Assembly (NCBI GenBank): GCA_043818675.1
Contig: JBDRFR010000061.1
Span: 1 to 56,341, forward strand
Direction of reading: 5' to 3'
Source of the DNA: Nanobdellota archaeon
GTDB taxonomy: Archaea; Nanobdellota; Nanobdellia; Woesearchaeales; DATDXC01
Length of the DNA: 56,341 bases
The notes under the pieces are model-generated. The model was not told the DNA's origin. It saw only the letters and a list, made by a program, of their open reading frames with translations, and did no database searches. The stretch's first letter is position 1; each line of letters begins with the position of its first letter. Both the position numbers and the translations under genes were made by a program. Below are positions 11,820 through 46,015 of the stretch, one piece after another.

Positions 11820-11820
11820 A

Positions 11821-26986: not shown

Positions 26987-27154
26987 ATGAGCAAGCAAAT
27001 CAGAATCACTGTCAGCAATGAGATAGACAAGATGCTTTCTAAAGTTGCCAAAAAACTGGGCAAGAAAAAATCAATGCTTGCAAGAGAGCTGATGGAACAA
27101 AAGATGTATGACCTTAAACTTATCCAGAAGGGTCTCGAGGATATCGAACTATGA
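26987..27154 (+). CDS. Ribbon-helix-helix (CopG/MetJ-like) protein, first gene of module B
   Basis: MSKQIRITVSNEIDKMLSKVAKKLGKKKSMLARELMEQ shows the RHH pattern. ATGA overlap with the 27151 gene. Confidence 0.6.
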   Translation: MSKQIRITVSNEIDKMLSKVAKKLGKKKSMLARELMEQKMYDLKLIQKGLEDIEL

Positions 27155-29310
27155 AAAAAGCGCAGGTTACAATATTCATCATCCTGGGTATAATCATCCT
27201 AGCTACAGGGGTTGTCTATTTTGCGATGAGAACTGATATTGCTGCCCAAGAAACTGAAGAACAATCAATCTTATCAGAACAGATACCAATAGAGTTTGAC
27301 CCTGTGCAGATGTATGTTGAAAACTGCCTGACAGAAATTGCCATGAAAGGGCTGAAAATACTGGGAGAAAGAGGAGGATATATCAACCCGGCAGCGATGG
27401 GATATGAGCTGAATAGATACGGCACAGAAGGCAATGCAATAACATGGGCAGCAAACTGGGTGATGCCGTACTGGTGGCATCTAAAATCAGCTAATACATG
27501 CGACGGTGACTGCGTGTTCGATACGCCGGTGCCTGAAGGCAAGCTGTTTTTGTACAAAACCAGCGGGTCGCCAAGCATACAGGCGCAGCTTGAAGAGTAT
27601 GTTAATTCCAACATCAAAGAGTGCCTGTTTAATTTTATGAGGCTTAGAGATGAAGGGTATAAGATCAGAGAGCTTGACACGCCGCAGACAACTGTAAGGA
27701 TCATCGATGATGAGGTGTTGTTTGGGCTAAGGTATCCGATAGAAGCTACAAAAATCTCAACAAAGACGATATCGCAGTTTTCGACAAAGATAGATGTGGA
27801 CCTAAAAGGCATCTATGAGTTTGCTTCGTTAGTCACATCTTATGAGATACAAGGGCATTTCCTTGAAAATTATATAACAGACATGATCGTTGCATTTTCA
27901 GGGGCTGATGCAGAACTGCCTCCAATGTCAGAGACACTATTTAGGCTTGGCGGCGGAAAAATCTGGAGCAAAAACAGGATTGAACAGCATATCCACCAAA
28001 ACATACTGCCAAACTATATACAGGCGCTTAGGGTGTTTGGCACGCAAAATTATGAGGCGTTCAATGTGGCAGATGATCCGATAAGCTCGGGATTTTATAA
28101 TAATAATATGGTGCTTCCGGGAAACAGAAGCTTTACGCATCTTACAGCAGATTTTTTCTATGACGGGCTTAGGTGGAAGCCGTACTTTGACCTAAACTGC
28201 AACGGGGACGAGTGCAGGCCGACATCCATTCTGGGCGAGGTCATGCAACTGATAGGGCTGCAACGGTACAATTTCCTGTATGACCTAAGCTTTCCGACAA
28301 TGGTGACGATACGAGACCCAAGGGCGTTTTTGTTCAATGAGGAAGAGGGATATACGTTTAATTTCCTGCTTGAAGCTAATATACGGAACAACAAGCCGCT
28401 AAAGGCTGATTATACATCGCCGCCTGTGATGGAGGATGCAGGCAATTCAATGGTATGCGACTCTAACAAAAGATTATCAGGCAATATTACGATACATATC
28501 AAAGATTCATTAACACAAAAGAATGTGCCGGATGCGCAGGTATTATACACAATTGCCGGAGAGTCGTGCTATATCGGCAGCACTGATATGGACGGAAACC
28601 TTGCTGCCAAGTTTCCGATAGGGTTTAACGGCATAATATCTTTTATGAAGCAGGATTATATCACCTATTCAGGGATAGCCACAACTCAGATGGATAAAGA
28701 ACAGGAGCTGGACGTATCACTTACACCGATAATCACAAAGCCGTTTACTGTAGGAAAGGTTATATTTGATAAGCACGGTGCAGACGATTACAGGGTAAGA
28801 TATTCGACAATGCTCAACCCTGTAAACCTATCAGAAGGGGAGCGGGCGATGATAACCCTTACACGAAAACCGAACAGAAACGAAGCTGAGTTTTCAACTT
28901 ATGCAGAGTTATGGGGCAACAGGAGCTTTGGGTCTATACGTATCGCGCCGGGCGAGTATGAGATGCGCATCGATCTTTTTTACCATAAAGAGCTGACAAT
29001 ACCGGAGCGGACTCTAAACTATGACGGACAGGCTGTCATCTTCCCAGGATTTGCATTCAATGACAGCGACCCGATGCCAAACGGCGGACTGCATTGCGAT
29101 GAAGACACATCGACCGGGCAGGCGTTTTTGGAGTCCAACCCTAACTTTAATGCAACCAATATAATCCTGTTCAAAACAGTATCGCTTGACCTGCAGAACT
29201 GGAACCCAAGCTCGATACTGCCGGAAGAAGACCTTGTGGAAACGTCCAACTATGATAAATATAAACAGTACTGCTTCCAGCTAGCTCCGCACATATATAA
29301 AAATGGCTAA
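27151..29310 (+). CDS. Large protein with class III (pilin-like) signal peptide, module B (719 aa)
   Basis: N-terminus MKKAQVTIFIILGIIILATGVVYF. Paralog of the 13024 and 37036 proteins (blocks listed under 13024). Confidence 0.85.
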   Translation: MKKAQVTIFIILGIIILATGVVYFAMRTDIAAQETEEQSILSEQIPIEFDPVQMYVENCLTEIAMKGLKILGERGGYINPAAMGYELNRYGTEGNAITWAANWVMPYWWHLKSANTCDGDCVFDTPVPEGKLFLYKTSGSPSIQAQLEEYVNSNIKECLFNFMRLRDEGYKIRELDTPQTTVRIIDDEVLFGLRYPIEATKISTKTISQFSTKIDVDLKGIYEFASLVTSYEIQGHFLENYITDMIVAFSGADAELPPMSETLFRLGGGKIWSKNRIEQHIHQNILPNYIQALRVFGTQNYEAFNVADDPISSGFYNNNMVLPGNRSFTHLTADFFYDGLRWKPYFDLNCNGDECRPTSILGEVMQLIGLQRYNFLYDLSFPTMVTIRDPRAFLFNEEEGYTFNFLLEANIRNNKPLKADYTSPPVMEDAGNSMVCDSNKRLSGNITIHIKDSLTQKNVPDAQVLYTIAGESCYIGSTDMDGNLAAKFPIGFNGIISFMKQDYITYSGIATTQMDKEQELDVSLTPIITKPFTVGKVIFDKHGADDYRVRYSTMLNPVNLSEGERAMITLTRKPNRNEAEFSTYAELWGNRSFGSIRIAPGEYEMRIDLFYHKELTIPERTLNYDGQAVIFPGFAFNDSDPMPNGGLHCDEDTSTGQAFLESNPNFNATNIILFKTVSLDLQNWNPSSILPEEDLVETSNYDKYKQYCFQLAPHIYKNG

Positions 29311-32300
29311 ACAACTATCAGCAATATTTGTAATGATTTTAATAGTCAGCATGCCGATAGCGTTTGCTGACTTTCTACAGGTAAGCTCTGTGCACGGCGC
29401 AACAGATAATATTGAAGGTTTTCTGACAGACACTGATGATACGCTTGTTGTCGAGCTTTATGCATACGTATCAGGAGATGATATTATTGAAACTGACCAG
29501 GTACGGTACGGCGGGTCAGGAGCGTCGCCCTTGAACCCGAGCAACGCCGGGCTGAAGTTTAATACGTGCGAGCCTGTAGAGGGCCAGGCCTACAGCCTAT
29601 GCACCTTTACGTTTACGCCGCTGATATATTTCTCAAACCCGCAAAGCATGCACTTTTATCTGTATGATGATTCAAACCTGAAAGTGGCCCAATCAGGCTA
29701 TACTGTTTTCTTTGATGAACTACCGCCTATTGTCAATTCGTTTACTGCGCAGCCAGCTATTGTCAGCAGCGGTGATATAAGCTTCAAGTTGGATGTTACT
29801 GATGCTGCATGCACGTCCACAAAGTGCAACGGTAAATGCACAGGCATCGACAGGATAGAAATCAGCGCATTGACATATACGCACACAATAGATGTTGATT
29901 CTACAAAATGCAACAATAAAAGCGTCATCAAGGCGCCGCTTGCAGCGATAATAGGCGCTGCTGCAACAGTGCAGACTGTTAGCGCAACAGCTACCATATA
30001 CGACGTTATGGGCAATTCTATCACTGCAACCCAGGATATCCTAATCGATACAAAAGACCCGGTAATAACTCACCTTAATGTTACGCAGCTTGAGCAAGAG
30101 GTGCACCATGTAGGCCGCGGCGGGAAGATAGTGACTGTGGGCGCAACCATAGCCGATGAGAACCTGGTTAGTACCAGTGTTAATGCTGACCTAAGGGAGC
30201 TTAATAATAAAACGCTGGACTATGGCAATAAGCCTGCGATATGCACGCTTGTATCAGACAATACTTATGACTGCAAATGGCATAATATTGAGATATATCT
30301 TGACGATACGATAACTGCCAAGATCCGGATCAATGCGTCTGATTCGGCGGGCAACAACGCATCAACAGTGCTTAACTGGAACATTGAATATGACCCTTAC
30401 AGCCCGGAGATCAGTTCGATCAAAACGAACAGGCAATACAAAGGAATAAGCTATATGGGCATAGGGTATAATAAGATCGAGGTATCTTTAACAGAAGATG
30501 GGTCAGGATTTAATAATAATAAGCTGTATATGGACCTAAGCCAGGTGGGAAAAGGTGCGTCTGTGCAGACAGACGGATGCACAGGGTCATGGACATGCAC
30601 ATTTGATAATATCGATGCAGGCTCGATAAGCGAAGGCAAAAAAACAGTTAAGATACTGCCTGCGTCAGTGGATGACCTTGGCAATCCGGCTTTGGGAGTG
30701 CTTGAGGAAACATTAATCTTTGATAAGACACCGCCGTCATACCTTGCGCACTCAATAAAAAATGTAGGGGCTAATATTTTCAGCGGGATAATAAAAACAG
30801 GCGATGCGCTTAATATTGAGATCAATGTATCTGAGCCGCATGAGATCATCAATGCGTACGCTAACCTGTCGATGATCATAGAGGATGCTGATGTTGTCTC
30901 TAACGATGGATGCGTCAATAAATCAGACCTGTGGACATGCAGATGGGAGCTGTCACCCATAGACATAACAGGCCATATAGAAGATAAACTACTGTTTTAT
31001 TTTACAGATGCTGCTAATAATACCTTATCAAAAGAGATCGAGATCGAAGTGCTGGAAACCAATGATTCCACAACACCAAATTTCTGGAAAAAGCCAACTG
31101 TAGAGTGCAGCCCGACCAGGATCGATAGAGAGATTACAACACTGATAGAGACAAGGTCGTTTTGCAAACTCACATTGCAGCAACAAAACGCTGCATCTGA
31201 CCAGGAGGCTCTTGAATTCAGCCTGGGAACGTGCGTCAATAACAGCATAATGCCAGGCGGCACAACCTTTCTTTCCAAGCAGCCTGTATTAAGGAATGAT
31301 ATCCAGGGAAGCGACGAGATATTTATGGAGTTGACGCTCAACAAGGCCGACACCTCAGCGTTAAGCTATATCGATATCAAATGCCCGCTTAATATCGTAT
31401 CAAGGGTGGAAAATACTGTTTATGACCAGGGCGAGACAGAGGATGTGGCTGTCAAGCTTGTATTTTATAATAATCCTTTGGGCACTGCCTCTACCAGCCT
31501 AAAAGAGAAGGTCAAAGATGTTGAGAAGATGACAGACGGAGCATGGGATCTTGTCGGGTCGCTTAGAGAGTTTCTGGGCATGGCAGAGGCTGCGTGCAAA
31601 ATATGGGGCGGGCTGCAGCATCTTGCGGCTGCATGGAACGGGCTAAAAATAATCTTTGGCACTGCTGAAGAAAAAGCCAAATGGATGGGTTCGCCTGCAT
31701 CTGCCAAGCTGCAGGAAGCAAGGGTTATCAACTGCGAGGCTGCGCAAAAAACAGGAGATCTCGCGCATAAGCTTTACAAAGGCGAAAACGGGATCAATAA
31801 GTTCTGTAATTTTGTCAACTGTAAGATGGCATGGAGCAAAGACTGCAATGACGTGAAAGGATTCGAAGGATGGGGCCAGGCGCTTGGCGGCGGGTGCGGT
31901 TGGTTTAATCCGGAAACTGACAATTATTTTGGGATAGGAGACTGGGCAAAAAACAACCTTGGAAAAAATCCTAATGATTATATGAGCGTCAAAGACAGCT
32001 TTTTTTTAAGCCTTGCGACATGGTGCATCCCAGGACTTATTTACAACATTGATAAATACAGGCAGATCGAATGCAATTACGGAACATGCCTGCTTGCGAT
32101 ATCAGAAACACCAGGCATAAACCAGCAAAATGAACAGCATCAGAGCATACCGTTAACAATGTGCGAAAAGCAGAAAGACTACATGGAATGCAGGTTTTTT
32201 GCGGGAGAGGTTTTTGAACTTTTGTCGCCTTTAAAACTGCTGAATTACTATACAGACATGATAAAAAACGGGATCGCAGACCCAGGAGCTGCGCTTGGGA

Positions 32301-32524
32301 CAGCGTTTTCGATGCTTTCACAGTGCAAGCCGGCATGCAAAGAGAATCTTGTCTGGCCGCACCAGAGATGCTATTGGCTGAAACTTTTGTCAACCATAGG
32401 GGAAGCTGTCAAAGATATCTATGTGGCAAAAGAGCTCAGCGACAATGACTGGGAGGTATATGATAATTACTGCGAGAGGTTTGAAGAGATGAAGACTGAG
32501 GTTGGATGGGTGTCAGACCCATGA
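29303..32524 (+). CDS. Giant secreted Cys-rich surface protein, paralog B (1073 aa)
   Basis: Signal peptide MAKQLSAIFVMILIVSMPIAFA. Ig-like boundary motifs (VFFDELPPIV, ILIDTKDPVI, IEYDPYSPEI, LIFDKTPPSY). Cys-rich C-terminal domain (YRQIECNYGTCLLAIS...CEKQKDYMECRFF). Confidence 0.85.
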   Translation: MAKQLSAIFVMILIVSMPIAFADFLQVSSVHGATDNIEGFLTDTDDTLVVELYAYVSGDDIIETDQVRYGGSGASPLNPSNAGLKFNTCEPVEGQAYSLCTFTFTPLIYFSNPQSMHFYLYDDSNLKVAQSGYTVFFDELPPIVNSFTAQPAIVSSGDISFKLDVTDAACTSTKCNGKCTGIDRIEISALTYTHTIDVDSTKCNNKSVIKAPLAAIIGAAATVQTVSATATIYDVMGNSITATQDILIDTKDPVITHLNVTQLEQEVHHVGRGGKIVTVGATIADENLVSTSVNADLRELNNKTLDYGNKPAICTLVSDNTYDCKWHNIEIYLDDTITAKIRINASDSAGNNASTVLNWNIEYDPYSPEISSIKTNRQYKGISYMGIGYNKIEVSLTEDGSGFNNNKLYMDLSQVGKGASVQTDGCTGSWTCTFDNIDAGSISEGKKTVKILPASVDDLGNPALGVLEETLIFDKTPPSYLAHSIKNVGANIFSGIIKTGDALNIEINVSEPHEIINAYANLSMIIEDADVVSNDGCVNKSDLWTCRWELSPIDITGHIEDKLLFYFTDAANNTLSKEIEIEVLETNDSTTPNFWKKPTVECSPTRIDREITTLIETRSFCKLTLQQQNAASDQEALEFSLGTCVNNSIMPGGTTFLSKQPVLRNDIQGSDEIFMELTLNKADTSALSYIDIKCPLNIVSRVENTVYDQGETEDVAVKLVFYNNPLGTASTSLKEKVKDVEKMTDGAWDLVGSLREFLGMAEAACKIWGGLQHLAAAWNGLKIIFGTAEEKAKWMGSPASAKLQEARVINCEAAQKTGDLAHKLYKGENGINKFCNFVNCKMAWSKDCNDVKGFEGWGQALGGGCGWFNPETDNYFGIGDWAKNNLGKNPNDYMSVKDSFFLSLATWCIPGLIYNIDKYRQIECNYGTCLLAISETPGINQQNEQHQSIPLTMCEKQKDYMECRFFAGEVFELLSPLKLLNYYTDMIKNGIADPGAALGTAFSMLSQCKPACKENLVWPHQRCYWLKLLSTIGEAVKDIYVAKELSDNDWEVYDNYCERFEEMKTEVGWVSDP

Positions 32525-32667
32525 TAGAGAAACTTGTTTGAGAAAATGGAACAGAATGAAAAAAGCAAAATTGTCAAACCCAAAAGAGGGACAAAGCATG
32601 GATGAGACAAAAATTACTCAATTGAGTAAAAAAATAGTCAATATTGATGAATGGAAAATGTTTTAAT

Positions 32668-33003
32668 ATGAAAAAAGCGCAATTGTCAAACCCGAGATTG
32701 GGAATGGTCGTAATACTACTAGTCATCTGTATAGTGATGATAGCGTTTACAACTTCAAAAGTTTATATGGCGACGGGCAATGCGGCATGCTTTCTTCCGT
32801 TAACAAACATCACGCTTTTTGATAATGCAACAAAGGAGATACAGGATATCAATATTGGAGATGAGGTGTTATCTTATGATTTTGAAAATGAACAGAATGT
32901 TAAAGTTGAGGTTATGAATGTTTTTTCACACCAAGAAAACAGGTATATGATAATTAATGGCAATATGAAAGTTACGCCAAACCATATGGTGTATGCAAAA
33001 TGA
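32668..33003 (+). CDS. Pilin-like leader + 28-aa linker + N-terminal split Hint/intein half (111 aa)
   Basis: MKKAQLSNPRLGMVVILLVICIVMIAF...ATGNAA is followed by CFLPLTNITLFDNATKEIQDINIGDEVLSYDF...NMKVTPNHMVYAK-stop. Intein block A (Cys1) and block B (TPNH) are present and blocks F/G are absent. Confidence 0.8.
   Translation: MKKAQLSNPRLGMVVILLVICIVMIAFTTSKVYMATGNAACFLPLTNITLFDNATKEIQDINIGDEVLSYDFENEQNVKVEVMNVFSHQENRYMIINGNMKVTPNHMVYAK
32788..33000 (+). other. Split Hint/intein N-half IntN1 (71 aa)
   Basis: It starts at TGC 32788 (Cys1) and contains the TxxH motif TPNH. It ends at the gene stop, at the position where the contiguous copy (34475..34861) continues with EGQWVPIG. Confidence 0.8.
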
Positions 33004-33941
33004 ACAATACAGCATACCTAACAAATCTGAATGCAGGACTTTGGTTAATAGTCATTATTACATGTATAGTGATGGTTGGATTTATCGGTTCGAAAAAATC
33101 GGTGAATCTAATATCTGTGAATTCAGGAATTGAAGGGATAAGCGGGAATGTAATCCAAACCAACCAAGAAGGTATTAGTAATCAAGAATATGTTGCAAAG
33201 AACTCAGACCAGATAACTACAATAGCTAATAGCCATAATGTACCTCCTGCTGAACTTGCAGCAATAATTATTGCAGAAAGAAATCCTACTGGCCCGCAAT
33301 CGCATGATACCGGAACAAACTTAGGAGTAACCGCAATGAGTGTTAGTCAAGCAAAAACATATAGTGGTGCTGCTGGAATGACTGATCAGGCAATTGCGAA
33401 TAAATTACAAAATGATGATAATTTTGCGATAGAAGCTACCGCTAGTAGAATGGCGTATATACGCAGTCTTAATAGCTATGATAAGTATTATTCAGACCCT
33501 AGAATATCAGGAGATCCAGTAAAGACAGGACAATTAACATTAGCTATATGGCGTGGAGATATTAATGGAGCACGAGAGGAAAATTTTAATAGGATAGTTA
33601 ATGGAAAATTTGCGGAAATGTATACTAGTGGTCAAGCAACAAATCATCTCTCCGAACAAGCTGCTGAAAACAGAGTTGATTCGTTCAATCGTGCAAGAGA
33701 GGCTATTGGAAGCGATGAATCAGCAGCGTGCTTCCTTCCGTCCACTCAAATAACATTATCTGATGGATATAAAGAAATTCAAGATGTAAAAGTTGGAGAT
33801 CAAGTATTATCATATGATCTTGACAATAAGCAAAATGTTAAGGCTGAGGTTGTGAATGTTTTTTCGCATAAAGAAAACAAGTATATGATAATAAATGGCA
33901 ATATGAAAGTTACGCCAAACCATATAGTTTACGCAAAATGA
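33000..33941 (+). CDS. Membrane-anchored lysozyme/lytic-transglycosylase-like protein ending in an N-terminal split Hint/intein half (313 aa)
   Basis: TM helix LWLIVIITCIVMVGFIG. Candidate SLT-like region at aa 72-160 (PPAELAAIIIAERNP...TNLGVTAMSVSQAKTY...NDDNFAIEATASRMAYIRSL). The C-terminal 70 aa are CFLPSTQITLSDGYKEIQDVKVGDQVLSYDL...VTPNHIVYAK-stop. Confidence 0.75.
   Translation: MNNTAYLTNLNAGLWLIVIITCIVMVGFIGSKKSVNLISVNSGIEGISGNVIQTNQEGISNQEYVAKNSDQITTIANSHNVPPAELAAIIIAERNPTGPQSHDTGTNLGVTAMSVSQAKTYSGAAGMTDQAIANKLQNDDNFAIEATASRMAYIRSLNSYDKYYSDPRISGDPVKTGQLTLAIWRGDINGAREENFNRIVNGKFAEMYTSGQATNHLSEQAAENRVDSFNRAREAIGSDESAACFLPSTQITLSDGYKEIQDVKVGDQVLSYDLDNKQNVKAEVVNVFSHKENKYMIINGNMKVTPNHIVYAK
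33729..33938 (+). other. Split Hint/intein N-half IntN2 (70 aa)
   Basis: Cys1 at 33729 and a TPNH motif. It is about 90 percent identical at nucleotide level to the 3' part of IntN1 and ends at the gene stop. Confidence 0.8.
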
Positions 33942-36235
33942 AAAAAATAATATCAATACTGATGATCGTGCTGTTAGCCAGTTTTGCATCTGCATGGAAC
34001 TGGGTGCCAATCGGGTCGCTAAAGCCAGGCAATGTATTGATGGACAAGGACGGCAACGAGATCGTGATAGAAACCATCGAAGAGGCCTATGACCCAGAGG
34101 GTGTTACAGTGTATGACCTGGAAGTTAAAGACTACCATTATTATTACGCGCAGGGGGCGCTTGTGCATAATAGTCAGACAGATTTAACTTTTGGCGGATT
34201 ATATTCTGCTGATCACATCAGTTCGATAGCTGGAAATGCTGATGCGATCAGGGCTGAAATTAACAAACTGGACACGACTGATAGTGGAACTACAGTTGGT
34301 ACAGATGTTCATAATGCCCGAACCTATTTGCAGAATATGCTCGCTGAGGCGGAGCGTTATAGGTTACAGAGTCCATACGGTAACCCTAACGGATTGCAGG
34401 GTACCCTATCAGAAGAGGAGCCACAATATACCTTATTGAGTAGTCATGAAACTCAATCATTGAATTCACCAGTCTGCTTCCTATCCGGAACAATGATAAC
34501 ATTAGCCCACAGCACAAAACCTATAGAAGATATCAGACCAGGCGATAAAGTGTTAACTTATGATTTTGATAATGGAAAAACTGTTGTGTCAGAGGTTGTT
34601 GATACATATCAAAGATTAACCAATAAATATTTAGTCATTAATAATAAGATCAAGGTTACACCAGACCATATATTTTATATTGAAGGACAGTGGGTGCCGA
34701 TAGGCGAAGCGCAGATTGGCGATAAGATGGTAGATAATAAAGGTAATTATGTTACAATAGAATCTATAGAAAAGATTGCTGTGCCGGAAGGTGTGAAGGT
34801 CTATAATTTTAAGGTTAAAGGTTACCCGTACTATTATGCAGAGGGAATACTGGTGCATAATGAATATGAGACAGTTAAGATAGGTGATATAAATTTTCAG
34901 GTCACTCGCAATGCTGATACAAATGCTATCACTGGTTTTACAGGAGGAGAATATAATGGTGGTCCAATGGATCAGGCTACGCTTGACCAGATGCAGGCAT
35001 ACAGCGGTACAGGGTATACGACTGATACATCAAGTGATACGATTACAATCAGAAACTCAGACAATAAGCAAGTATTTTCAACAAGCTCCAGTGGGACAAC
35101 TACAGCAACGATAAATGGTCAATCCACAGATGTTATACCCCGCACAACAACTGTAAATAGCTTTGAACAAGTACCTATTGACAGTAATAACGATGGAAAA
35201 ATAGATGATGAGGATAAGGGTAAAATGAGTAGACCAAGACCTTCAACAACCACTGTCATCCACACCAATGTGGTCAAAGGAGGTGATAATGCGGGTGATC
35301 ACCATTTTACTGGAACTGAGAGGACACAGTATCATTATAACCTGCGAGGTGTACAAACTTATTCAGATACTGCAAACTATAATGCAAAAGGGGAAATGAC
35401 AAGTTACACTTATAAAAATAATGGAGGTGGAGAATGGACCACGGTAAATGGTAACATGCCTTCAGGCGCACCACAGTCTGCTAAGACCGCATGGTCTCAG
35501 GCGCAGTGGAGAAACAGGATGGCAAGCTTTGAATCGTGGTTTACAGCATACCAGGGCTTTTCAGGATATTCAAGCCTTCTCTGGGATGAGGAAGATACAT
35601 GGGTGCAAAACTGGAAAGATGATGTCAATGATTTCTTCTGCTCGACTGTTATCGGCGGAGGGGTGGACTGCTTTACGTCAGCTGTGTGCTCGTCAGGAAT
35701 TGATGATTCAGACATACCTGCTAATGTTGCGTTTGTCACAACGCCAAACGGGCTTACTATGACAGCTGCGCATGTAGAAGCAGAAATGTCCGGACCGCTT
35801 ACGTCTATTGATGAGACAGGAGCAGAATACACTGAATACCTGTACAAGATAACCTATGTTGTCAATAATATGCAGGGCAGCGGGTATGATGACCTAAAAG
35901 TATACTTACAGCTGACAGGCGGACGGACTTATACCTTCCCGCAGGAGACTATAGAGGAAGGAAAAATGGTAAGGCATACAGGAGCTAATGCTATAGTAGA
36001 TTACAGCTACTATAGGTATACCACAGCCTGCCTGTATTTTGATAAGGAACTGTCGTCTGTATCAGATTTTGAGCCGTTTGGAAGCAACTCTAAGATGACC
36101 AGTATCTGCACACCGATAGCGCAATCAAATGCGCCAGCTTCAAGCGGAACAAGCTCAGGCAGCAGTTCAAGTGCAGCAAGCTCAGCAGCGCCTGCAGCGC
36201 CTGCGTGCACTGTTGTGACGGATTGTGATATCTAA
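33938..36235 (+). CDS. Leader + C-terminal split Hint/intein half + 101-aa segment + complete Hint domain + Ser/Thr-rich and beta-rich C-terminal region (765 aa)
   Basis: MKKIISILMIVLLASFASA is followed by WNWVPIGSLKPGNVLMDKDGNEIVIETIEEAYDPEGVTVYDLEVKDYHYYYAQGALVHN|S (blocks F and G). A contiguous Hint spans aa 180-308. The tail is ...SGTSSGSSSSAASSAAPAAPACTVVTDCDI. Confidence 0.8.
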   Translation: MKKIISILMIVLLASFASAWNWVPIGSLKPGNVLMDKDGNEIVIETIEEAYDPEGVTVYDLEVKDYHYYYAQGALVHNSQTDLTFGGLYSADHISSIAGNADAIRAEINKLDTTDSGTTVGTDVHNARTYLQNMLAEAERYRLQSPYGNPNGLQGTLSEEEPQYTLLSSHETQSLNSPVCFLSGTMITLAHSTKPIEDIRPGDKVLTYDFDNGKTVVSEVVDTYQRLTNKYLVINNKIKVTPDHIFYIEGQWVPIGEAQIGDKMVDNKGNYVTIESIEKIAVPEGVKVYNFKVKGYPYYYAEGILVHNEYETVKIGDINFQVTRNADTNAITGFTGGEYNGGPMDQATLDQMQAYSGTGYTTDTSSDTITIRNSDNKQVFSTSSSGTTTATINGQSTDVIPRTTTVNSFEQVPIDSNNDGKIDDEDKGKMSRPRPSTTTVIHTNVVKGGDNAGDHHFTGTERTQYHYNLRGVQTYSDTANYNAKGEMTSYTYKNNGGGEWTTVNGNMPSGAPQSAKTAWSQAQWRNRMASFESWFTAYQGFSGYSSLLWDEEDTWVQNWKDDVNDFFCSTVIGGGVDCFTSAVCSSGIDDSDIPANVAFVTTPNGLTMTAAHVEAEMSGPLTSIDETGAEYTEYLYKITYVVNNMQGSGYDDLKVYLQLTGGRTYTFPQETIEEGKMVRHTGANAIVDYSYYRYTTACLYFDKELSSVSDFEPFGSNSKMTSICTPIAQSNAPASSGTSSGSSSSAASSAAPAAPACTVVTDCDI
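33995..34171 (+). other. Split Hint/intein C-half IntC1 (59 aa, +1 Ser)
   Basis: Block F-like VYDLEVKDYHYYYA and block G LVHN, followed by Ser79 (AGT 34172-34174). Confidence 0.8.
34475..34861 (+). other. Contiguous mini Hint/BIL-like domain (129 aa) with Glu at +1
   Basis: CFLSGTMITLAHSTKPIEDIRPGDKVLTYDF...KVTPDHIFYIEGQWVPIGEAQIGDKMVDNKGNYVTIESIEKIAVPEGVKVYNFKVKGYPYYYAEGILVHN|E. It aligns end to end with IntN plus IntC and so defines the split point. Confidence 0.8.
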
Positions 36236-36915
36236 TGAAACTAAAAAAATTATCAGAGATCGTATTATTAGACGTGGTGTTTGTCAGCATAAGCTATATC
36301 CTTGGACTGATAGCGACTAAAATGATCAGGACAGAGTACAACAAACTGCTGGAGATAGATATAGAAAGTGTCATACAAAAAACAAATACAGAGATCAACA
36401 GAGTGTCTGAAAGCATGAGCCACCATCTATCTGCGATTGTTACTGTGGCAATCATATTTGCTATAATAATAATAACTAACTGGTCTTTTTTTCAATATAT
36501 GGTGTATTCAAAAATATTAGATAAAAAGCATAATTCAAAGCAGTTCTTTAAATTTTTAGGGCTGAACTTTGCATGGGCAGCGGGATTTGCATCAATCATG
36601 TTTGTAATACAAAAAGGCGCGCAGATCTACCTATTGTATACGCTAAACATCACAATGATATTACTGTTTGCGTATTATACCAATATATTGTACATATCAT
36701 TTTTCAGGAAATCTGTGAAAAAAACGCTAAAGATTGGCTTTTACAAATTTCATAAACAGGCGATACCGTACATCATCATGGCAGCAATATTGTACAGCCT
36801 GGTAAAAATAAGCAGCATTTTTCCATACAGCCATTTTTTGATAAAAGCACTGATGCTGATAATAGCGATAACAGCAATAGACTTTACAAGGATATATATA
36901 GCAAAAAGCATATAA
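36235..36915 (+). CDS. Polytopic membrane protein, module B (226 aa)
   Basis: Paralog of the 12294 and 50498 proteins (VKKTLKIGFYKFHK, TRIYIAKS). TAATG overlap with the upstream gene. Confidence 0.75.
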   Translation: MKLKKLSEIVLLDVVFVSISYILGLIATKMIRTEYNKLLEIDIESVIQKTNTEINRVSESMSHHLSAIVTVAIIFAIIIITNWSFFQYMVYSKILDKKHNSKQFFKFLGLNFAWAAGFASIMFVIQKGAQIYLLYTLNITMILLFAYYTNILYISFFRKSVKKTLKIGFYKFHKQAIPYIIMAAILYSLVKISSIFPYSHFLIKALMLIIAITAIDFTRIYIAKSI

Positions 36916-37035
36916 AAAAAGTATACAATGACCGAAACAATAATAAAAACAATCATAGAAAAAACAGACATCAACACTTTGCGGATAACAGACGTGACAA
37001 ATACTATCAGTCAATTTTTTAGGGTATAAAAAAAA

Positions 37036-38955
37036 ATGAAAAGAGGACAGATCACCATATTTATAATAATGGGACTTGTGATAATGCTTGCAGTCTCGTA
37101 TTTTATCTTTATCAGGGAGAAGTCCATTATACAGCTGGAGCAGATCAACCCGGAACTGCTGCCTGTCCAAAGCTTTATTGAAACATGCATAATCAACACA
37201 GGCAAAGAAGGGCTTACCACGTTAGGGCTTAACGGCGGCTATATCTATTTCCCGCCGTATATCGAAGAAAACCCGGACAGCTATATATCAAGGTCGCCGA
37301 CGCCTGAGCTAAAAAATCCGTACTGGTGGTTCGACGGGATATCGCGTGTGCCGACAAAAGAGTTCATGCAGGACCAGATATCAAGGTATGTTACTGAAAA
37401 CCTGCCGGAATGCTTAAACAGCTTTGATGTTTTCAGCAATAAATATGAGGTTATCGAGCATGGCGATATGGGCACAATAACAGAAATCGGCAATTCGATG
37501 GAGTCGCTTGTAAAGATAGAGACAATGTATCCGCTTGAGATCAAAGATAAGTTTAATAAGACGCTTGCAGAGATAGACAGGTTCAGGGTAGAGGTGCCGG
37601 TGCGGCTTAATGCTGCGCATACGCTTGCAAGACGTATCATGGAATCAGAAAATGCTGGCGGGTTTATGGAAAAGAAAGTGATAGACCTTATAGCGATGGA
37701 CGATGATATACCAGATACTGGCGGGCCGAAGTTTCAGTGCAATAAGCTTCAATGGCAGGTGGAGCCGATCAAAAATAAATTAAAGATGCTCATGACAGAA
37801 AATTTCCCGTATATAAAGATCAGGGGGTCAAACTTTACACCTGACCGGTATGTGCCGCTGCCGGATATTGCGCCGTGGGCAAGCCTGCCTGAAACTTATA
37901 ATGCGTCATATTATTGGCACCATTATATATGGGAAGTGGGAGATGAAGACTATTCTAACATGAAAGTGGGGTTTACGTATGATAATTATGAGCTTGAATG
38001 GCTAAACGATTTCTATATACGGCCTAATAACTATCCGATAATCGAATCTAACTCACAGCGGGGCAACCAGATGCTGTCGTTCTTCTGCATGCATATATGG
38101 CATTTTACATACGATGTGAAGTTCCCGGTCAAGGTTACGATCGTTGACCAGGATACCAGAAAAAATGATGAGTTTTCGTTCATATTTGCGTTCCAGGGCA
38201 GTATTGACCATAATGAGCCAAGGAGGGATACGTTTGCTATAACTGATTATCAGACAAGCAATATTATCCGGGATGATGAGTTTTGCAGCAGTGAACTGGA
38301 TAATACAATGAGGTTCTATGCAATAGAAAACACTACGACAGGATATGAGCTTAAAGGCGTGAATCTAAGCTTTGTATGCGGCAGGTATGAGTGCCCTCTT
38401 GGCCTAACAACACCTGATTATTCAATGTACGGGACACCGTACTGGCAGGGAGTTATGCCTCGATGCACGCTTGGGATATTGAGGGCTAAAAAAGAGGGGT
38501 ATGCTGATTCGCAGCGGTTCATCTCGTCAGAAACCGAGGGCGCGTTTTATATCTATATGCGGCCTGTCAAAGAGATCAATTACAGTGTTGTTAAGCATGA
38601 ATATATGGGATCAGGCATCCCTAACGCGCCGGCGCAGAAACTAAAAGATGATGAGTCAGCGATAGTCATCATCAAAAAGCCAGGGTTTGAAGAGACAGCA
38701 ACATACAGGACAGACCAAAAGATCGAACTGCTGGACCGGGATGATTATGATTATGATGTGGAAGTGTACATAATGACAAACGAGTCAATGATTGGCGGGT
38801 ATAAAGGGAAGTGGCATGCGTCAGAAATAGAGATGGAGAATGCTAAAGAGGTTGTATTTCATGCTGTGTATAAGCCGTTTTCAGACGATACTGAGATGAT
38901 GATGTTTTTTGCAGGGCTGCCGAGCTATTCAAATAGGGAGCCGGAATTCAGATGA
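37036..38955 (+). CDS. Large protein with class III (pilin-like) signal peptide, module C (639 aa)
   Basis: N-terminus MKRGQITIFIIMGLVIMLAVSYF. Paralog of the 13024 and 27151 proteins. Confidence 0.85.
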   Translation: MKRGQITIFIIMGLVIMLAVSYFIFIREKSIIQLEQINPELLPVQSFIETCIINTGKEGLTTLGLNGGYIYFPPYIEENPDSYISRSPTPELKNPYWWFDGISRVPTKEFMQDQISRYVTENLPECLNSFDVFSNKYEVIEHGDMGTITEIGNSMESLVKIETMYPLEIKDKFNKTLAEIDRFRVEVPVRLNAAHTLARRIMESENAGGFMEKKVIDLIAMDDDIPDTGGPKFQCNKLQWQVEPIKNKLKMLMTENFPYIKIRGSNFTPDRYVPLPDIAPWASLPETYNASYYWHHYIWEVGDEDYSNMKVGFTYDNYELEWLNDFYIRPNNYPIIESNSQRGNQMLSFFCMHIWHFTYDVKFPVKVTIVDQDTRKNDEFSFIFAFQGSIDHNEPRRDTFAITDYQTSNIIRDDEFCSSELDNTMRFYAIENTTTGYELKGVNLSFVCGRYECPLGLTTPDYSMYGTPYWQGVMPRCTLGILRAKKEGYADSQRFISSETEGAFYIYMRPVKEINYSVVKHEYMGSGIPNAPAQKLKDDESAIVIIKKPGFEETATYRTDQKIELLDRDDYDYDVEVYIMTNESMIGGYKGKWHASEIEMENAKEVVFHAVYKPFSDDTEMMMFFAGLPSYSNREPEFR

Positions 38956-41900
38956 TAAATAAAGAATTAATCGCATTAACACTTATCTGGCTAGTTATAC
39001 TAATGCCGATCACATCGGCAGAGATTGTTATACGGGATGTTACAGTTGAAGATGTTACAGACAGCGGCTCCAATATCACATGGAACACTGACATATCATC
39101 AACAGCAAGAGTAACATACGGGAAAACTGTACCGTTATCAGAAAACGCATATGGAGCAGGCCTTAGCAAAAACCATTCTGTCATCGTAGAGGATCTTGAC
39201 GAGTCAACTCCGTACTTGTTTGAAGTATACTCGCTTGCAGGCTCTAATTCAGGAACAGACAATAACAACGGACAATATTACCAGTTTACAACACTACCGG
39301 ATGTTACGCCAAATATTAAAACTTTTATCAATAGATATCAGCAGACAAGAACTAAACAGATAGAGCTATGGACAGACCCTAACAGCGAAGTTGAGATATC
39401 TGTCAATAACGGAGCAACAGACCTGCAAAGAAGCTATGCAGACCCTAAAGGGTTTTTTTCTGCTACTGTTGACCTCTTGGACGGAGACAATACTCTCAAG
39501 GTCAAGGTTGAAGACCCAAGAGGGCATAAGAATGAAACAGAATTTATCATTACAGTTGACCAGATAATACCCAGCTTTAATATCAGGCCGCTGATACCGC
39601 CACTTACTGCCAAGAATAAGATCCTTGTAAACGGGACAGTTGATGAGAATGTTACAATGAATTTAACTTTGGAGTACCAAAAAACTGATACAACACCGCC
39701 TGCCAAAGTAATCAACCTCACAAATGTTACTATCGACAGCAACTCAGTTGAGCTTGAATGGAACAAGATTACTGATGCTGAAAAGTACCTGGTTTACCGG
39801 GATAATTATTTACTTTCGGTACGAACTACTAACCAGTTTACTGATCAGGTTAATACAAGCACTGAATATACATATTCTGTTTCTGCTGTGGATGCATCGT
39901 GCAACCAAGGTGAAGGTTCTGATGAATTGGTTATAAAAACTCAATCAGGCGCAAATAATGTTACAGCAACTGTTACACCACCACAATCTGAGTGCGGCTT
40001 TGTGCAAGAAGTTATAATAAATACTAAAGATTTTTTTAAGCAGGAATTTACGCTCAAAGATGAAGGGTTTTATATGTTAACTGTCGAAGCAAAAGACCCT
40101 GCTGGGAATATGAACAAAACAGAATTCAATATATATTATGATGTTAACCCGCCGGAAATAACTGATATTGAGCCGCCGGACGGGACAGACTTTTTTGAGC
40201 AGTTTGCTGACGATGTGGACATTACAGGCAAAACTGACCCGGGAGCTAAAGTGTACCTGTATGTTAAAAGGACGCCGATGGGTGAATGGAACACGACAAT
40301 GTTTGAGAGGATTGCAGATCAGATCAACACGATAGCAGAAGAAGACCTGTCAACTGATAGTGATAGAAACTCAAGAGCGGATTATATGACGCTTGCTGAT
40401 GCGAACGGCAATTTTCTTTTTCCTAAAGTTGACATCAGGTCAAGTGTGGCGCTGGGCGGGAGGGTGCAGCAAATCAATTATGAGGATCTGCATGATCTTA
40501 CAAACCAATATAAAGAGATTCAAAAATCTAACTTATTATTCATAGCAACAGACGCGTTCCAAAAAAGAGGGTATGAGCCGATAGAATACGATGTTAAGAC
40601 GTGCTGGTCAGGCGATATGTTATGGGATGCTACGCCGCTTCTGCCCTACCAAAGCCCTGCGTTCATCTCAACTGAGCGGCTTGCAGAAGGGCTGGAGACA
40701 TTATACTTTTATTTTAATTTTACATATTATGGTGATGCAGTAAAAGACCAGGCAGAGATCACAAGCGTCACTGTTGAGCGGGCGTGCGATGAGTATATAG
40801 TAAGAGACCCTAATTATAATCACAGCTGCAATGTAATGGGATCGTCGGCTGCGACTGTAAGGATAATCAATGGAAAAACTGCTTATGTAGTGTATAGGCT
40901 TTCTGCTTATAAAGTGATGGACCAGTGGAGCAGCGGCGACTGGAACAATTTTTTTAAAGGATTAACAGATAACCAGATGCTGTTTCCACTGAGGTTTACT
41001 ATCCAGTATAAATATAAAAAACGAATCCAGGAATATGATACAAACGGCATTGTTAGGGCATGGAGCGGGCAGGATGCTTCTGGAAATTTCTATTATACAA
41101 CCGGGACACAGAGGTTTTGTGAAAGTGTAGGGTATTATGTTGATATGGGGAGGATTGACCCGCGGGATGTCCTGCCTGACTGGCTGCTGTATGATTTTGT
41201 CGATATCTTAGAAGATATAATAGAAAAGACCACTGAATGGATCGACGACCTGGGTAAGATACTTGAACAGGTCGCTATGGGGTGCATGATATCGTACTTT
41301 GGCAAATTTTTTATCAAGGTCTATCGGAATTTTAACTGCCGGATCGAAGGGATAAAAAATGTGGGAGCGGCTGTTACAGGCGGAGGCGCTGCGACTGCTA
41401 AATGCAAGCAGTGCATCCAGGATTTTGATTATAAGGGAAGTGTACCCAAGGGAATGAACATTGATGTTATGAAGCCTGATGATATTTCAGATACCTGCTT
41501 AAAAGAATGCTACCCTGGATGTTACAGCGCGTGGCAGACAGAGGCAACATGGCATACATTTTTCAGGTATACCTGTGATCGGCTGTTTGGGCATTCGTCG
41601 CCTGCGGGCTGGACTGAGGACAAATCTAATAATGAAATACTTAAGAAAATTAAGGGCGGGTCGCAGTGCGACAGCGACCAGTCTACAAAAGGAAGGAGGC
41701 TGACTGTTGTTAATTGCAGGGAAGCCTACAGAAGGCTAAGCGGTGGCAGTGCAGCAGGCGGGTTTGGAACTAATGATGAATGCGTTGAAATGACTGGTGT
41801 ATCGACTGGTGTATCCGGAGCGGTCAACACAATTCAATTGTATAAAATTGGCAACGCACAGAGCAGTGGAAGCAGCATATACAACTTAATTTATCAACAA

Positions 41901-44900
41901 ACAGATTTAAGCAGGACCTTTTCGACTGAGTATGCAATCAAACAGTCTAACAATTATTATTTAACATACCAACCAAAAACGTGCGCTGAAATATGCGGCG
42001 CGCCAGGATCGACTGTATCAACTGGACCTGCTAAAACTGTATCAGTCGGCACAAAAAAAATTAATATTTACCCTATCAAGCCGCCAACAACTGGAAGTGT
42101 GGCTAAAACTAAAGACCCTTATTATACCTGCACAATCGCTGACTCATGCAAAAGCCTGAACAAAAATACGGATGATCAACATAAAAGTACAATCAATGAT
42201 GCGTTTACAGCCGGATATACAAATGATTGTTTCTATAAAAAAATATTTGCAAAGGATCAGGAAGTAACAAATGCATTAGATAAACCACAATCTGTGAGCG
42301 GCAAATCAAGTGAACGGTACGAATGCTGCTGTATCAGCGCTGGTGAGAATAGCGCTGCAGACCAATACTACCAGCCGCAGGATGTTGAATCAAAAACTAA
42401 GAAAAAGGCGCCTTATGGAGTGGATCATGCAGGAGGCAATGGAATAACAGACCCAAAAGAATACGCAGATATGGAATGGAGTTATAGGTATTTTAAGATC
42501 AATTGGGCAGCGCCAGCAAGTAGAACAGGCACGGTGGTGCGTGATCAATATAACCCTGACAGGTACACATCCGGAAGGGATGCGCCTGCTTGTTTTGGGC
42601 AGGACCATCTATGGGGTGGAGAAGAGGTAGTGAAACTTGACCCTGCAAGGGATTTTCTTGCGGCATTCCAATGCGCTGATGTAGGAGGTATCCTAAACAG
42701 GCTGTATCTTGTAAGAAACCTGGCAACTGCGCTTAAAACCTGCCTGATGCAGGTACGGACAACCGGGAGAGCAGATTCAGGGATGTGCAAGGAGATGTTT
42801 ACACAGTACATATGCTCGTTTATATGGAAGGTTATAGTCTGGGTGCGCGACGGGTGCAGCCCGATGGGGTCGCTATTGGATGCAGACGGTGAAGCTGGAT
42901 GGTCGCAGTATATTGTTGCGGGGGTTGGGTCGATGGTGGATTCTGTCCAGGATTCACAACTAGAGATGGCGCAGGAGTACGGCAATGCTGACATCAACAG
43001 CCTGTTTGGGATGGGAGAAGAGGCTGTTGCAAGGAAAGTTTGCCTGGCTGCGTTTGGGTATGACTGGGATATAGGTGTCCAGAATTTTGTCGATGCTGCG
43101 TACGCTGCGCCGTATGAGACGCTTGTAATGGCGCCGAACATACTTCAGGGCAGGGAATACCTGACGTTTGACCCGACAACGTCACCGTCGCAGTCTGTCT
43201 ATGAATATAAAAATACATGGACCATCAATCCGGGGTGTAATTTTGACGGGTATAGAGTTTATCTAACATGCATAGGAAGCGAAGAGTTTGCAACGCAACA
43301 GGATGTACGATGCGACAAGGTTGAAAGCCCGCAAAAGCCTGACTGCCCGTGCGCTAACGGAGCGTCGCAGTCGCGGCTGCTGTATACAGGCGGAGCGCTA
43401 ACCAAGAATGTTCTGGAGGATATTGACCATACGATGATCCCTGCAGCCAATAGGATCGTTACGTCACCGTATCGGTATGACCATATAAAAATCGAGATTG
43501 ACGCTAAAAATATTGCGGCAGCGCAGGGAGATGTCAACAGGTGTTTTGGCGAGGGGCATGTGCAGGGCACAAAAGGCGTGTATTATTTCCCTATCAAAGA
43601 TTATACACCTTCGGATTTTGTGGCGTGCGAAGTTGATGCGGCTTCAGGCACGTTCTACTGCAATAAAGGGGCTGCGTTTTTGAACCCGTACGGGACAACG
43701 TATCTTACTTCGCTTAAGGTTAACAATAAGCAGGTGTATCCGCCTACTGCTGTAGGTACGTTTACTGTAGAACCACTGGTATTATATGCAAAGGATGATA
43801 GGACTATAAGCGGGACTGTTAATTATTATAAGGATGATAAGGCAAAATGCTTGGTAGTCAGATTGACGGATAGCATGGGCCAGCTCATAGGACAACAGCA
43901 TAATTTCAAACTTACAGGATCTGCCGGAGACCAGACAAGGTCAATACCGACGATTAATATTGGCGACCAGTACACACCGAGCCTTGCGGCGGGTGTAACT
44001 TATAGTGTTACGTCAAGCCCCGCAGGTTTAAACGGAGAGGTTGTTAATCCTGTTGGGTTCACTACAGTTATAACAAAATCAAAATCGATAACATTCCAGG
44101 ATGGAAACAGTGATAATAAGATTGAATTAAAAGACGGATCAGTTGATAAATTCAAGATAGACGGATCGTTCGTGCCCTTATCAACGGTTTGTGCGAGCAA
44201 TATTTGCACGTTTGCCTTAAATTGGAATGATGGTAATAAAGCAGACGTAAAGTTGATTTATACTGAGATTGCTATTACTCAACCTGAAACTGAAAAGGTA
44301 TATAGTTTAACCATTACAAAACAACCTATGTCTTCTACCACACCTGGCGCACGTTTTGGGCTGCATATTGACCTTAGAAATCCGGTGACGGAAAACGGGG
44401 ACTGCGCGCAGGCTGCAGCGTCTATCTATGATGATAGCCTGGTTGTTGTAAATAACGGGATAAGGCAGTGGTATGATGTGCCTATCCAAGTTCTTGCTGG
44501 GAGTGGGTATGATAGTCAAAGATGCGCGCCAAATATGCCTATTTCAAATGATTGTTATTGCGCGCCTACCACTATTACAAGCACTACACAGCTGGACTGC
44601 CCTAAAGCAACTCTGGGTTATTATTACTGCGTTGATAGTAAATGCAGGCGGTATAATAAATGCACAATGGATACAAACGGCGAAGTTAACAACGGGCCTT
44701 GTGTTTGCGGTGTTGTAAATGATGTGAATAAATTTGATTGCGGGTATACAACTGGCGCTGCTGATAATGACTATGCCGGAACTGATCCAACTAATAAAGC
44801 GGAATATCAGTATTGTTCTGCTACTACGACGGGTGGTTCTTTATCATGCAAAAAAGCGGCCAGTGCTGCTGTAGTGAGATCCCTAAGTACTACTGCTGAT

Positions 44901-45841: not shown

Positions 45842-46015
45842 ATGGGACAACGAATTGAAAAGATAGCTGAAGTGTTCTTTGAAAATCCAGGCAGCCGGTT
45901 TACTGTAAGAAGGCTGGAAAAATTATCAAAAATATCAAAATCAACAGTGAAAAACTATCTGGACTTATTGAAAAAGGTAAGAGATTTTCGTTTTAATAAT
46001 AGTAGGTTAACATGA
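45842..46015 (+). CDS. Small wHTH protein, 57 aa (below the ORF-track cutoff)
   Basis: MGQRIEKIAEVFFENPGSRFTVRRLEKLSKISKSTVKNYLDLLKK resembles the wHTH N-termini of the 6467 and 52908 proteins. ATGA overlap with the 46012 gene. Confidence 0.45.
   Translation: MGQRIEKIAEVFFENPGSRFTVRRLEKLSKISKSTVKNYLDLLKKVRDFRFNNSRLT

Follow-up and report, generated by a model that had tools for sequence, protein, structure and literature searches.

The DNA analysed here, referred to below as the window, comprises positions 1 to 56,341 of the forward strand of contig JBDRFR010000061.1 from a Nanobdellota archaeon (assembly GCA_043818675.1, Woesearchaeales), 56,341 nucleotides in all; the GMP synthase encoded in it is 73% identical to those of Candidatus Nanoarchaeia and Woesearchaeota metagenome-assembled genomes. 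At two loci of the window a Hint (Hedgehog/intein) domain is divided between separate genes, its N-terminal half (IntN) closing one gene and its C-terminal half (IntC) opening another, where it stands behind a signal peptide. Locus 1 consists of three open reading frames (ORFs) on the plus strand, g1 (32668..33003, 111 aa), g2 (33000..33941, 313 aa) and g3 (33938..36235, 765 aa). g1 ends in CFLPLTNITL...KVTPNHMVYAK and g2 in CFLPSTQITL...KVTPNHIVYAK, each followed by its stop codon; g3 begins with MKKIISILMIVLLASFASA/WNWVPIG, and the C-half that it carries ends in GALVHN/S (a slash within a sequence marks a cleavage, splice or split point). Both the g1/g2 and the g2/g3 junction read GCAAAATGA, in which the stop codon and the next start codon overlap by 4 nt (ATGA). 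A preliminary description of this DNA had given the order as handle 1-IntN1, handle 2-IntN2 and leader-IntC-cargo with such overlaps at both junctions, and the ORFs with their coordinates and the domain matches bear it out; position 34174, where it ended the locus, is the +1 Ser codon of g3. Translational coupling of g1, g2 and g3 is plausible from this arrangement. The ATGA overlap is kept in the window and in locus L105 of another genome and is absent from L110 and L107 (relatives are given L numbers for loci and P numbers for proteins).

Residues 37-110 of g1 and 240-312 of g2 match the same part of the Pfam Hint model (positions 9-88 of 213; E = 8e-8 and 7e-7), and Vint matches were also obtained in the N-parts. 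Residues 40-78 of g3 match the end of Intein_splicing (positions 119-155 of 155, E = 1e-10), and its residues 58-79 match NCBIfam TIGR01443, intein_Cterm (E = 2e-8). The NCBIfam models intein_Nterm and intein_Cterm both give matches in the half-domains of locus 1, and the Pfam and NCBIfam matches of g1, g2 and g3 are far beyond chance. IntN1 (32788..33003, plus strand, as are all features below unless stated otherwise) is a 71-aa Hint N-half with Cys1 and TPNH whose stop follows 5 residues past the His; IntN2 (33729..33941) is 70 aa long, and the two are 75% identical in protein sequence and 83% identical in nucleotide sequence over 175 nt.

The N-extein of g1 (32668..32787, aa 1-40) consists of MKKAQLSNPR, a 20-residue hydrophobic helix and TTSKVYMATGNAA. 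It is at most 40 aa long and would shrink to 5-12 aa if the leader were cut at AFT/T or ATG/N. With a +3 n-region ahead of the helix, this leader looks like a plain signal-anchor or signal peptide. The preliminary description had taken it for a pilin-type signal, which did not stand: when compared with the class III motif ([KRDE][GA][ALIFQMVED][ILMVTAS]x3 with a hydrophobic helix directly after), KAQLSN is wrong at +4, and seven polar residues, LSNPRLG, a Pro among them, stand before the helix. The only pilin model matching g1 is UpsA, which scores 16 bits where the cut-off is 130; the match is located on the Hint part. g1 shares its first residues, MKKAQ, with a protein encoded at 27151 (MKKA/QVTIF) that does have the class III motif. 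That protein (27151..29310, KKA/QVTIF) and those at 13003..15900 (KKG/QVTVF) and 37036..38955 (KRG/QITIF) are the sole proteins of the window with a canonical class III (prepilin-type) signal, which is unusual for proteins this large (639-965 aa, paralogues); no gene of the window was recognised as encoding a prepilin peptidase. Upstream of g1, the segment 32542..32666, not included in the preliminary description, duplicates the g1 5' end: a 50-nt direct repeat (32542-32591) is 76% identical to 32654-32703, which it precedes by 112 nt, and opens a 36-aa ORF (32556..32666, MKKAKLSNPKEGQS...WKMF and stop). The segment is probably a remnant of another handle gene.

The N-extein of g2 (33000..33728, aa 1-243) has an uncharged N-terminus, one transmembrane helix and a domain of ~200 aa. 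Pfam, PDB and BLAST gave no match for this N-extein, and the domain displays a weak SLT-like motif only (AIIIAERNP...NLGVTAMS). In hhalign comparisons with SLT domains the catalytic-Glu motif was aligned only weakly, at a probability of 6%; the label "SLT-like" stays a suggestion.

The leader of g3 (33938..33994, MKKIISILMIVLLASFASA), listed as such in the preliminary description, is a predicted Sec-type signal peptide whose small-x-small site directly precedes the first IntC residue. The IntC (33995..34174) is a 59-aa Hint C-half running from WNWVPIG to ALVHN and followed by the +1 Ser. A linker of ~100 aa (34175..34474) leads from this Ser to an internal, contiguous Hint domain of the bacterial intein-like (BIL)/PT-HINT type (34475..34864, C180..N308, 96 bits with the PT-HINT model), which was missing from the preliminary description. 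The +1 residue of the internal domain is Glu, and by the standard route it would be expected to cleave and not to splice. Relatives P0045, P0066, P0072 and P0138 also carry a C-half behind a signal peptide and, a few residues on, a full Hint domain. The C-terminal cargo of g3 (34865..36235, ~456 aa) is without Pfam or PDB match, and its C-terminal domain is common to P0008, P0011 and a 1018-aa protein of L110.

At locus 2, a giant surface protein of 2288 aa (38952..45818) has an N-half as its C-terminal end. Its N-extein (38952..45593) contains a signal peptide, weak fn3 and Big_13 matches and Cys-rich regions, and its IntN (45594..45818) reads CFLPQTKITM...VTPYHYVYAKRNR followed by the stop codon. 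Downstream lie two C-half genes that overlap in ATGA: c2 (48668..49486), with a signal peptide, an IntC at 48731..48907 (VHN/S) and a MurNAc-L-Ala amidase as cargo (Amidase_3 domain, E = 5e-40), and c3 (49483..50409), with a signal peptide, an IntC at 49543..49719 (VHN/S) and a 229-aa domain without assigned function. PDB sequence searches gave no match for the cargos of g3 and c3. In total, the window holds three genes terminated by an N-half, three in which a signal peptide is followed by a C-half, and one contiguous copy. By identity, the N-half of g1 groups with that of g2 (75%) and that of the giant protein with the N-halves of L105 and P0015 (65-66%); the C-halves of c2 and c3 group with P0008 (72-77%), and that of g3 stands apart. 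This grouping hints at two cognate sets, one for each locus.

All C-half proteins have a K or KK n-region, an h-region of 15-19 aa and a small-x-small site located 0-3 residues ahead of the conserved W-x-(W/F) at the start of the C-half, with the exception of L110, where the distance is ~10 residues. The N-partners of L110 and L105 and the giant protein of the window have ordinary signal peptides.

Class, fold and conservation of the split domain

Cys1 and block B (CFLP... and VTPNH, VTPYH or VTPDH) are invariant in four N-parts. Throughout all copies Cys1, T-P-x-H and H-N are invariant, and Ser follows H-N in each of the three split C-halves, so that the class 1 intein residue set (Cys1, Thr and His of block B, His-Asn, Ser+1) is complete. 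The PT-HINT model (PF07591, cut-off 27.7 bits) scores 96.2 bits in g3, 36.5 in c2 and 30.9 in c3. Contiguous domains of the same subfamily (internal domain of g3, P0015, P0016, L119) align with the split copies without gaps across the junction (...VTPYHNMFING/EWKQIG...), and therefore the split removes nothing.

When IntN2 and the IntC of g3 were artificially fused and modelled with AlphaFold2 (AF2) from an alignment of 36 contiguous homologues, the predicted local distance difference test score (pLDDT) was 96.2 and the predicted template-modelling score (pTM) 0.89; single-sequence AF2 gave a pLDDT of 38. In the fused model the two halves together are one complete Hint fold, and the split, K70/W71, lies in a two-residue hairpin turn 5 residues past the block B His. 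There are 57 Hint-fold matches to this model in the PDB at E <= 1e-3. The best Foldseek matches are BIL domains, namely 6y75 and 6tmm (Tetrahymena BUBL BIL2) and 2lwy (C. thermocellum BIL), with a template-modelling score (TM) of 0.91 and a root-mean-square deviation of 1.6-2.4 A; classical inteins rank below the BILs, at TM 0.72-0.81.

What the halves are attached to differs from gene to gene. On the N side it is a transmembrane helix only, a domain without match, SLT, M23 or the giant surface protein, and on the C side Amidase_3, SLT or domains of no known family. The exteins are unrelated and interchangeable, and the domain is therefore no intein inserted in a host gene. It is a split Hint of the BIL/PT-HINT type. 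The half-domains that the preliminary description named IntN and IntC hold good as such but call for another label: they are Hint halves of the BIL/PT-HINT type that would join unrelated modules, not intein halves of one host protein.

Type A BILs (Amitai 2003; Dassa 2004; 2LWY; 6Y75/6TMM) resemble the domain most closely in structure, and they share with it the Hint fold, Cys1, TxxH and a C-terminal His-Asn as well as variable, non-conserved secreted or surface hosts in place of housekeeping genes; in the wider family found here, the +1 residue is mostly the non-nucleophilic Lys. In contrast to BILs, which are single and contiguous, the split copies are distributed over two genes, with a stop, a new start and the C-half's own signal peptide between the halves, they carry the Ser+1 that BILs lack by definition, and their host is an archaeon. 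According to PMC4031507, which cites Aranko 2013, split BILs have so far been only artificial.

Among Pfam models, PT-HINT fits the contiguous copy best, and it scores above threshold in c2 and c3. As in PT-HINT proteins, the domain follows a delivery or anchor part and precedes a C-terminal effector that varies, and downstream orphan effector genes keep the junction sequence. In polymorphic toxins, however, Hint is contiguous and thought only to release the toxin, and new tips are acquired via DNA recombination, whereas the orphans described here carry their own export signal and a Hint C-half, so that attachment at the protein level would be possible. No conserved gene that might correspond to the immunity gene of PT-HINT systems was seen beside the split-Hint genes in the window, L105 and L110.

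Natural split inteins (DnaE, gp41-1, NrdJ-1, IMPDH-1, Nanoarchaeum PolB) are likewise encoded as an N-fragment and a C-fragment in two genes. The domain shares with them the full class 1 residues, a +1 nucleophile among these (Ser here and in gp41-1), and the same trans-splicing chemistry would be expected. Natural split inteins are divided into ~88-123 aa and 35-40 aa at the endonuclease-insertion site and rejoin a conserved cytoplasmic protein of replication or nucleotide metabolism. The split described here differs in lying in a hairpin 5 residues past block B, away from that site, with parts of 70-71 and 59 aa, in having unrelated exteins, in no single conserved host protein and export signals on both partners, and in its two-to-one and one-to-two partners. 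In outcome only, a parallel may be drawn with sortases and archaeosortases and with Hedgehog, where an acyl-(thio)ester formed outside the cytoplasm attaches an exported protein covalently. Unlike in sortase systems, there is neither a separate enzyme nor a sorting motif nor homology, and the chemistry would be built into both substrates; Hedgehog, for its part, transfers to cholesterol and not to protein. No account of a naturally split BIL or Hint domain or of split intein halves with export signals was found in full-text literature searches. The parts (Hint fold, BIL, PT-HINT and the principle of split inteins) are already known; their combination is not. In it, a naturally split domain has an unusual split point, a separate Sec signal on its C-half and unrelated exteins, and its partners are two-to-one as well as one-to-two.

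An exhaustive profile search with the C-half, the only route by which relatives were found, gave 4517 of them. Most of these are contiguous Hint domains, in many cases with more than one in the same protein; in a separate set (P0008, P0010, P0011, P0029, P0152, P0153 and fragments), an N-terminal signal peptide stands immediately before the C-half. In L110 (Woesearchaeota UBA9638), a syntenic locus, two genes encoding a signal peptide with SLT-IntN and with Peptidase_M23-IntN precede a gene for a signal peptide, IntC and cargo (1018 aa), with a homologue of the window's 1073-aa gene before them and homologues of its 639-aa gene after. In L105, a gene for a signal peptide, linker and IntN overlaps by ATGA with a truncated 41-aa remnant of a signal peptide and IntC; an NTase/HEPN insertion and then P0008 (signal peptide, IntC, cargo) follow. 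In L107, P0015 holds a contiguous copy and a terminal IntN, and a signal-peptide start lies ~60 nt downstream. The flanks of the contiguous P0015 and P0016 differ again from those of the split copies. A second subgroup is represented by L146 (GCA_053534395.1, JAIYLG010000038.1, 1363..6906), where the split falls ~12 residues earlier, before block B: a secreted protein of 1540 aa ends with a 60-aa N-piece without TxxH (...RYRIIEYEIIG and stop), and the next gene, 15 bases on, opens with a signal peptide and LKVTLEHPF... and continues LKVTLEHPFYLNGEW...VVVHN/S-cargo. Independent assemblies (NCBI, JGI, ENA and Logan) share the stop after ...VYAK(R..) and the signal peptide at the junction. Taken from this comparison, the split is real, old and conserved.

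Other searches added little. A k-mer-indexed homology search with g1 returned g1 itself only, and the same kind of search with C-half and N-half profiles returned mostly short fragments. Pattern scans with an alignment of the window's C-halves gave no match in GTDB genomes or JGI metagenomes. Scans of viral contigs returned contiguous BIL-like Hints and phage split inteins of the ordinary kind, with no member of the split-Hint family. When metagenomes were scanned with the N-half, the matches were contiguous Hints, split inteins of phages, an aRF1 intein and Hedgehog-like C-terminal Hints, with no new split member. Exact-sequence look-up found neither g3 nor P0029 on record.

The ratio dN/dS is 0.13 for IntN1 versus IntN2, at a dS of ~1.0, and likewise 0.13 for the IntC of c2 versus that of c3; by this measure both halves are under purifying selection. 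Within each genome, the 3' thirds of tandem IntN copies are homogenised: they are 90% identical in nucleotide sequence in the window (the last third of IntN2 against IntN1) and 96% in L110, compared with 57-81% upstream. Such homogenisation is expected if both N-copies must fit one C-half. The proposal of the preliminary description that two alternative N-partners serve one C-partner gains support from it, as it does from L110, where the SLT-IntN and M23-IntN genes stand before one signal-peptide-IntC gene. The +1 residue also differs between the two kinds of copy: among representative hits, Ser+1 is present in 13 of 16 signal-peptide-led C-halves, whereas of 134 contiguous domains in the wider family 6 have it and 82 have Lys. 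The Fisher p of 7e-12 for this enrichment is indicative only, as the proteins are phylogenetically related. The contrast favours ligation over mere cleavage in the split copies.

Possible joining after export, and its alternatives

The reading that we hold to be modestly probable is that a naturally split Hint of the type A BIL/PT-HINT kind is reassembled after export and joins, or at the least processes, handle and cargo modules in this DPANN (Woesearchaeota-type) archaeon; we infer from the sequences that the halves associate, that the reaction takes place outside the cell and that it goes beyond cleavage to ligation. The handles, with the IntN at their C-termini, would be g1 (a bare anchor or signal), g2 (an anchor with a ~200-aa domain) and the 2288-aa surface protein. 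The cargos, with the IntC behind a cleavable Sec signal, would be g3 (an effector whose internal Hint would cleave itself), c2 (a peptidoglycan amidase) and c3. After co-transcription of g1, g2 and g3, as suggested by the 4-nt overlaps, every partner would be exported separately, and an N-half and a C-half would dock outside the membrane and rebuild one Hint fold. A Cys1 thioester would then be formed and transferred to Ser+1 or, in a BIL-like alternative, attacked by the new amino terminus that results from Asn cyclisation, which would leave a covalent handle-cargo joint and discarded Hint halves.

At locus 1, two N-partners would compete for one C-partner, and the products would be g3 anchored via g1, with the predicted junction peptide VYMATGNAA-SQTDLTFGGLYSADHISSIAGNADAIR (...ATGNAA-SQTDLTFGG...), or an enzyme-g3 fusion via g2. 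At locus 2, one N-partner could serve two C-partners, and the giant surface protein would be armed with the amidase or the c3 domain. The internal Hint of g3 could later free the distal ~456-aa effector, as proposed for PT-HINT in polymorphic toxins. There are precedents for parts of this scheme: engineered split inteins are functional after Sec export (review PMC7765530), and type A BILs ligate as well as cleave, ligation having been reported even without a +1 nucleophile (PMC4031507). Nanoarchaeota and Woesearchaeota are reported to have peptidoglycan hydrolases frequently and may attack bacteria (PMC12352652, PMC9723730), with which the proposed arming of surface proteins is consistent.

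A wider interpretation, put forward tentatively and with somewhat less than even confidence, is that of a polymorphic effector system operating at the protein level, in which handles (a membrane anchor, anchors bearing enzymes, the giant surface protein) and effectors (amidase, transglycosylase, toxin-like domains) are exported apart and joined covalently and combinatorially outside the archaeal cell by trans-splicing. If so, orphan effector cassettes would be swapped post-translationally and not by DNA recombination. To our knowledge, all natural split inteins rejoin the halves of one cytoplasmic housekeeping protein, and we know BIL and PT-HINT domains solely as contiguous self-cleaving modules. 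The system would then be the first in nature to splice proteins in trans outside the cell and the first natural set of split Hints whose partner choice is many-to-one, and it would provide a new route to surface proteins that is ligase-free, is assembled after export and has interchangeable partners. It would also help to explain by what means DPANN archaea, with their poor genomes, equip giant surface proteins with hydrolases of the bacterial cell wall. The small split pairs (70 + 59 aa), possibly orthogonal and evolved for extracellular work, might be of use as protein-engineering tools.

Several points weigh against joining after export. The fused AF2 model speaks for compatibility of the halves, not for binding. 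Signal peptides were called by a crude script, based on hydrophobicity and the -3/-1 positions, in place of a trained predictor. In g2, the stretch ahead of the transmembrane helix lacks positive charge and SKKS stands behind the helix; the positive-inside rule would put its IntN, with some uncertainty, in the cytoplasm, apart from the exported IntC. The family is rare, confined to a handful of contigs, and comparative support comes from few, related genomes. Finally, type A BILs yield mainly cleavage products (PMC4031507), and cleavage could dominate here as well.

This last point leads to the most serious alternative, a split autoprotease, which we consider unlikely. Here the halves would reassemble outside the cell only to cleave, and no new peptide bond would be made: Asn cyclisation would free the cargo from its IntC tag, thioester hydrolysis would free or activate the handle, and g1, which is nearly all IntN, would be a dedicated "maturase" setting off the release of the cargo. 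Besides the behaviour of type A BILs, which are also the nearest solved structures, this agrees with the reading of PT-HINT domains as toxin-releasing autopeptidases, with the internal Hint of g3, limited to cleavage by the standard route, and with the tiny N-extein of g1. Yet the Ser+1 that is enriched in the split copies would be superfluous for cleavage alone; the N-exteins of relatives are full enzymes (SLT, M23) and that of the giant protein spans ~2210 aa, all of them sensible fusion partners; and to free a cargo from a 59-aa tag behind an already cleaved signal peptide would be a needless detour.

It is improbable that the halves are a non-covalent docking module, a high-affinity adaptor comparable to cohesin and dockerin and devoid of chemistry. 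Split intein halves do bind tightly, and a tether would account for anchors paired with enzymes, but the catalytic residues, superfluous for a pure adaptor, are invariant across paralogues at a dS of ~1 or at saturation. A classical natural split intein, by which an ancestral host protein now divided into g2 (or g1) and g3 would be put together again in the cytoplasm like DnaE or Nanoarchaeum PolB, is very improbable: the full class 1 residues, the intein_Nterm and intein_Cterm matches and the split genes for which DPANN archaea are noted would fit it, but a Sec signal peptide lies between the halves in 3 of 3 window proteins and in at least 13 database proteins, the exteins are unrelated modules and the contiguous P0015 and P0016 have other flanks, the 70 + 59 aa split lies away from the endonuclease-insertion site, and the fold is nearer to BILs.

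Equally slight is the chance that a contiguous Hint surface-protein gene has decayed, or was misassembled, into non-functional pieces. Remnants and insertions do lie nearby (the duplicated g1 5' end, a truncated winged helix-turn-helix (wHTH) gene at 45843, an IS200 transposase), L105 and L110 contain toxin-antitoxin pairs, and L105 has the truncated 41-aa remnant described above. Against this, both duplicated halves evolve at the dN/dS given above, the same stop position and a well-formed signal peptide are found in independent assemblies, and the second subgroup is split elsewhere by the same logic. Since at least four independent contigs show the split and its halves are under purifying selection, sequencing error or recent decay is held excluded; the stop codons, on which the preliminary description depended, are genuine. 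Fusion by read-through or frameshifting over the ATGA junctions was rejected since it would put a signal peptide inside the Hint fold.

Genomic surroundings

The window holds two paralogous clusters of giant surface-protein genes (8451..15900 and 27151..45818). The 1122-aa and 1073-aa proteins are 24% identical (E = 2e-34), and the 965-aa protein matches those of 719 and 639 aa. Of the two clusters, only the second has split-Hint genes, and homologues of that cluster flank the split-Hint genes of L110 and L105. Immediately after g3, overlapping its stop codon by 1 nt, lies a gene for a 226-aa multi-transmembrane protein (36235..36915) with no family match. It may serve the g3 effector as an immunity or partner protein; in L105 and L110, no such gene was seen in the corresponding place behind the signal-peptide-IntC gene.

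Pairs of the NTP_transf_2/HEPN type are located between the IntN and signal-peptide-IntC genes of L105 (2294..3228) and just upstream of the IntN genes of L110 (3427..5665), and a truncated wHTH N-terminus (45843..45980) stands directly past the IntN stop of the giant protein in the window. The position beside IntN genes looks like a recurrent insertion site. A palindromic motif, TGGACAATTGTCCA, that separates IntN from the following gene in L105 and L107 was considered and dropped, as it is not enriched in the window. An NTP_transf_2/HEPN pair at 6467..7493 and an IS200-type Y1 transposase at 24784..25167 (minus strand), taken together with the elements above, indicate that this part of the genome is rich in mobile elements. 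Directly before c2 and c3, two tandem Schlafen genes (46012..48671; AlbA_2, HATPase_c_4 and wHTH; 51% identical) are found, the second of which overlaps the c2 ORF; in L108, a wHTH gene (2..208) overlaps P0011 by ATGA. The adjacency of Schlafen and wHTH genes may reflect a regulatory or defence-island association. Among the wider family, some relatives (P0005, P0025, P0059) have 8-9 matched Hint stretches per protein, and P0005 contains at least five tandem contiguous Hint domains whose +1 residue is mostly Lys.

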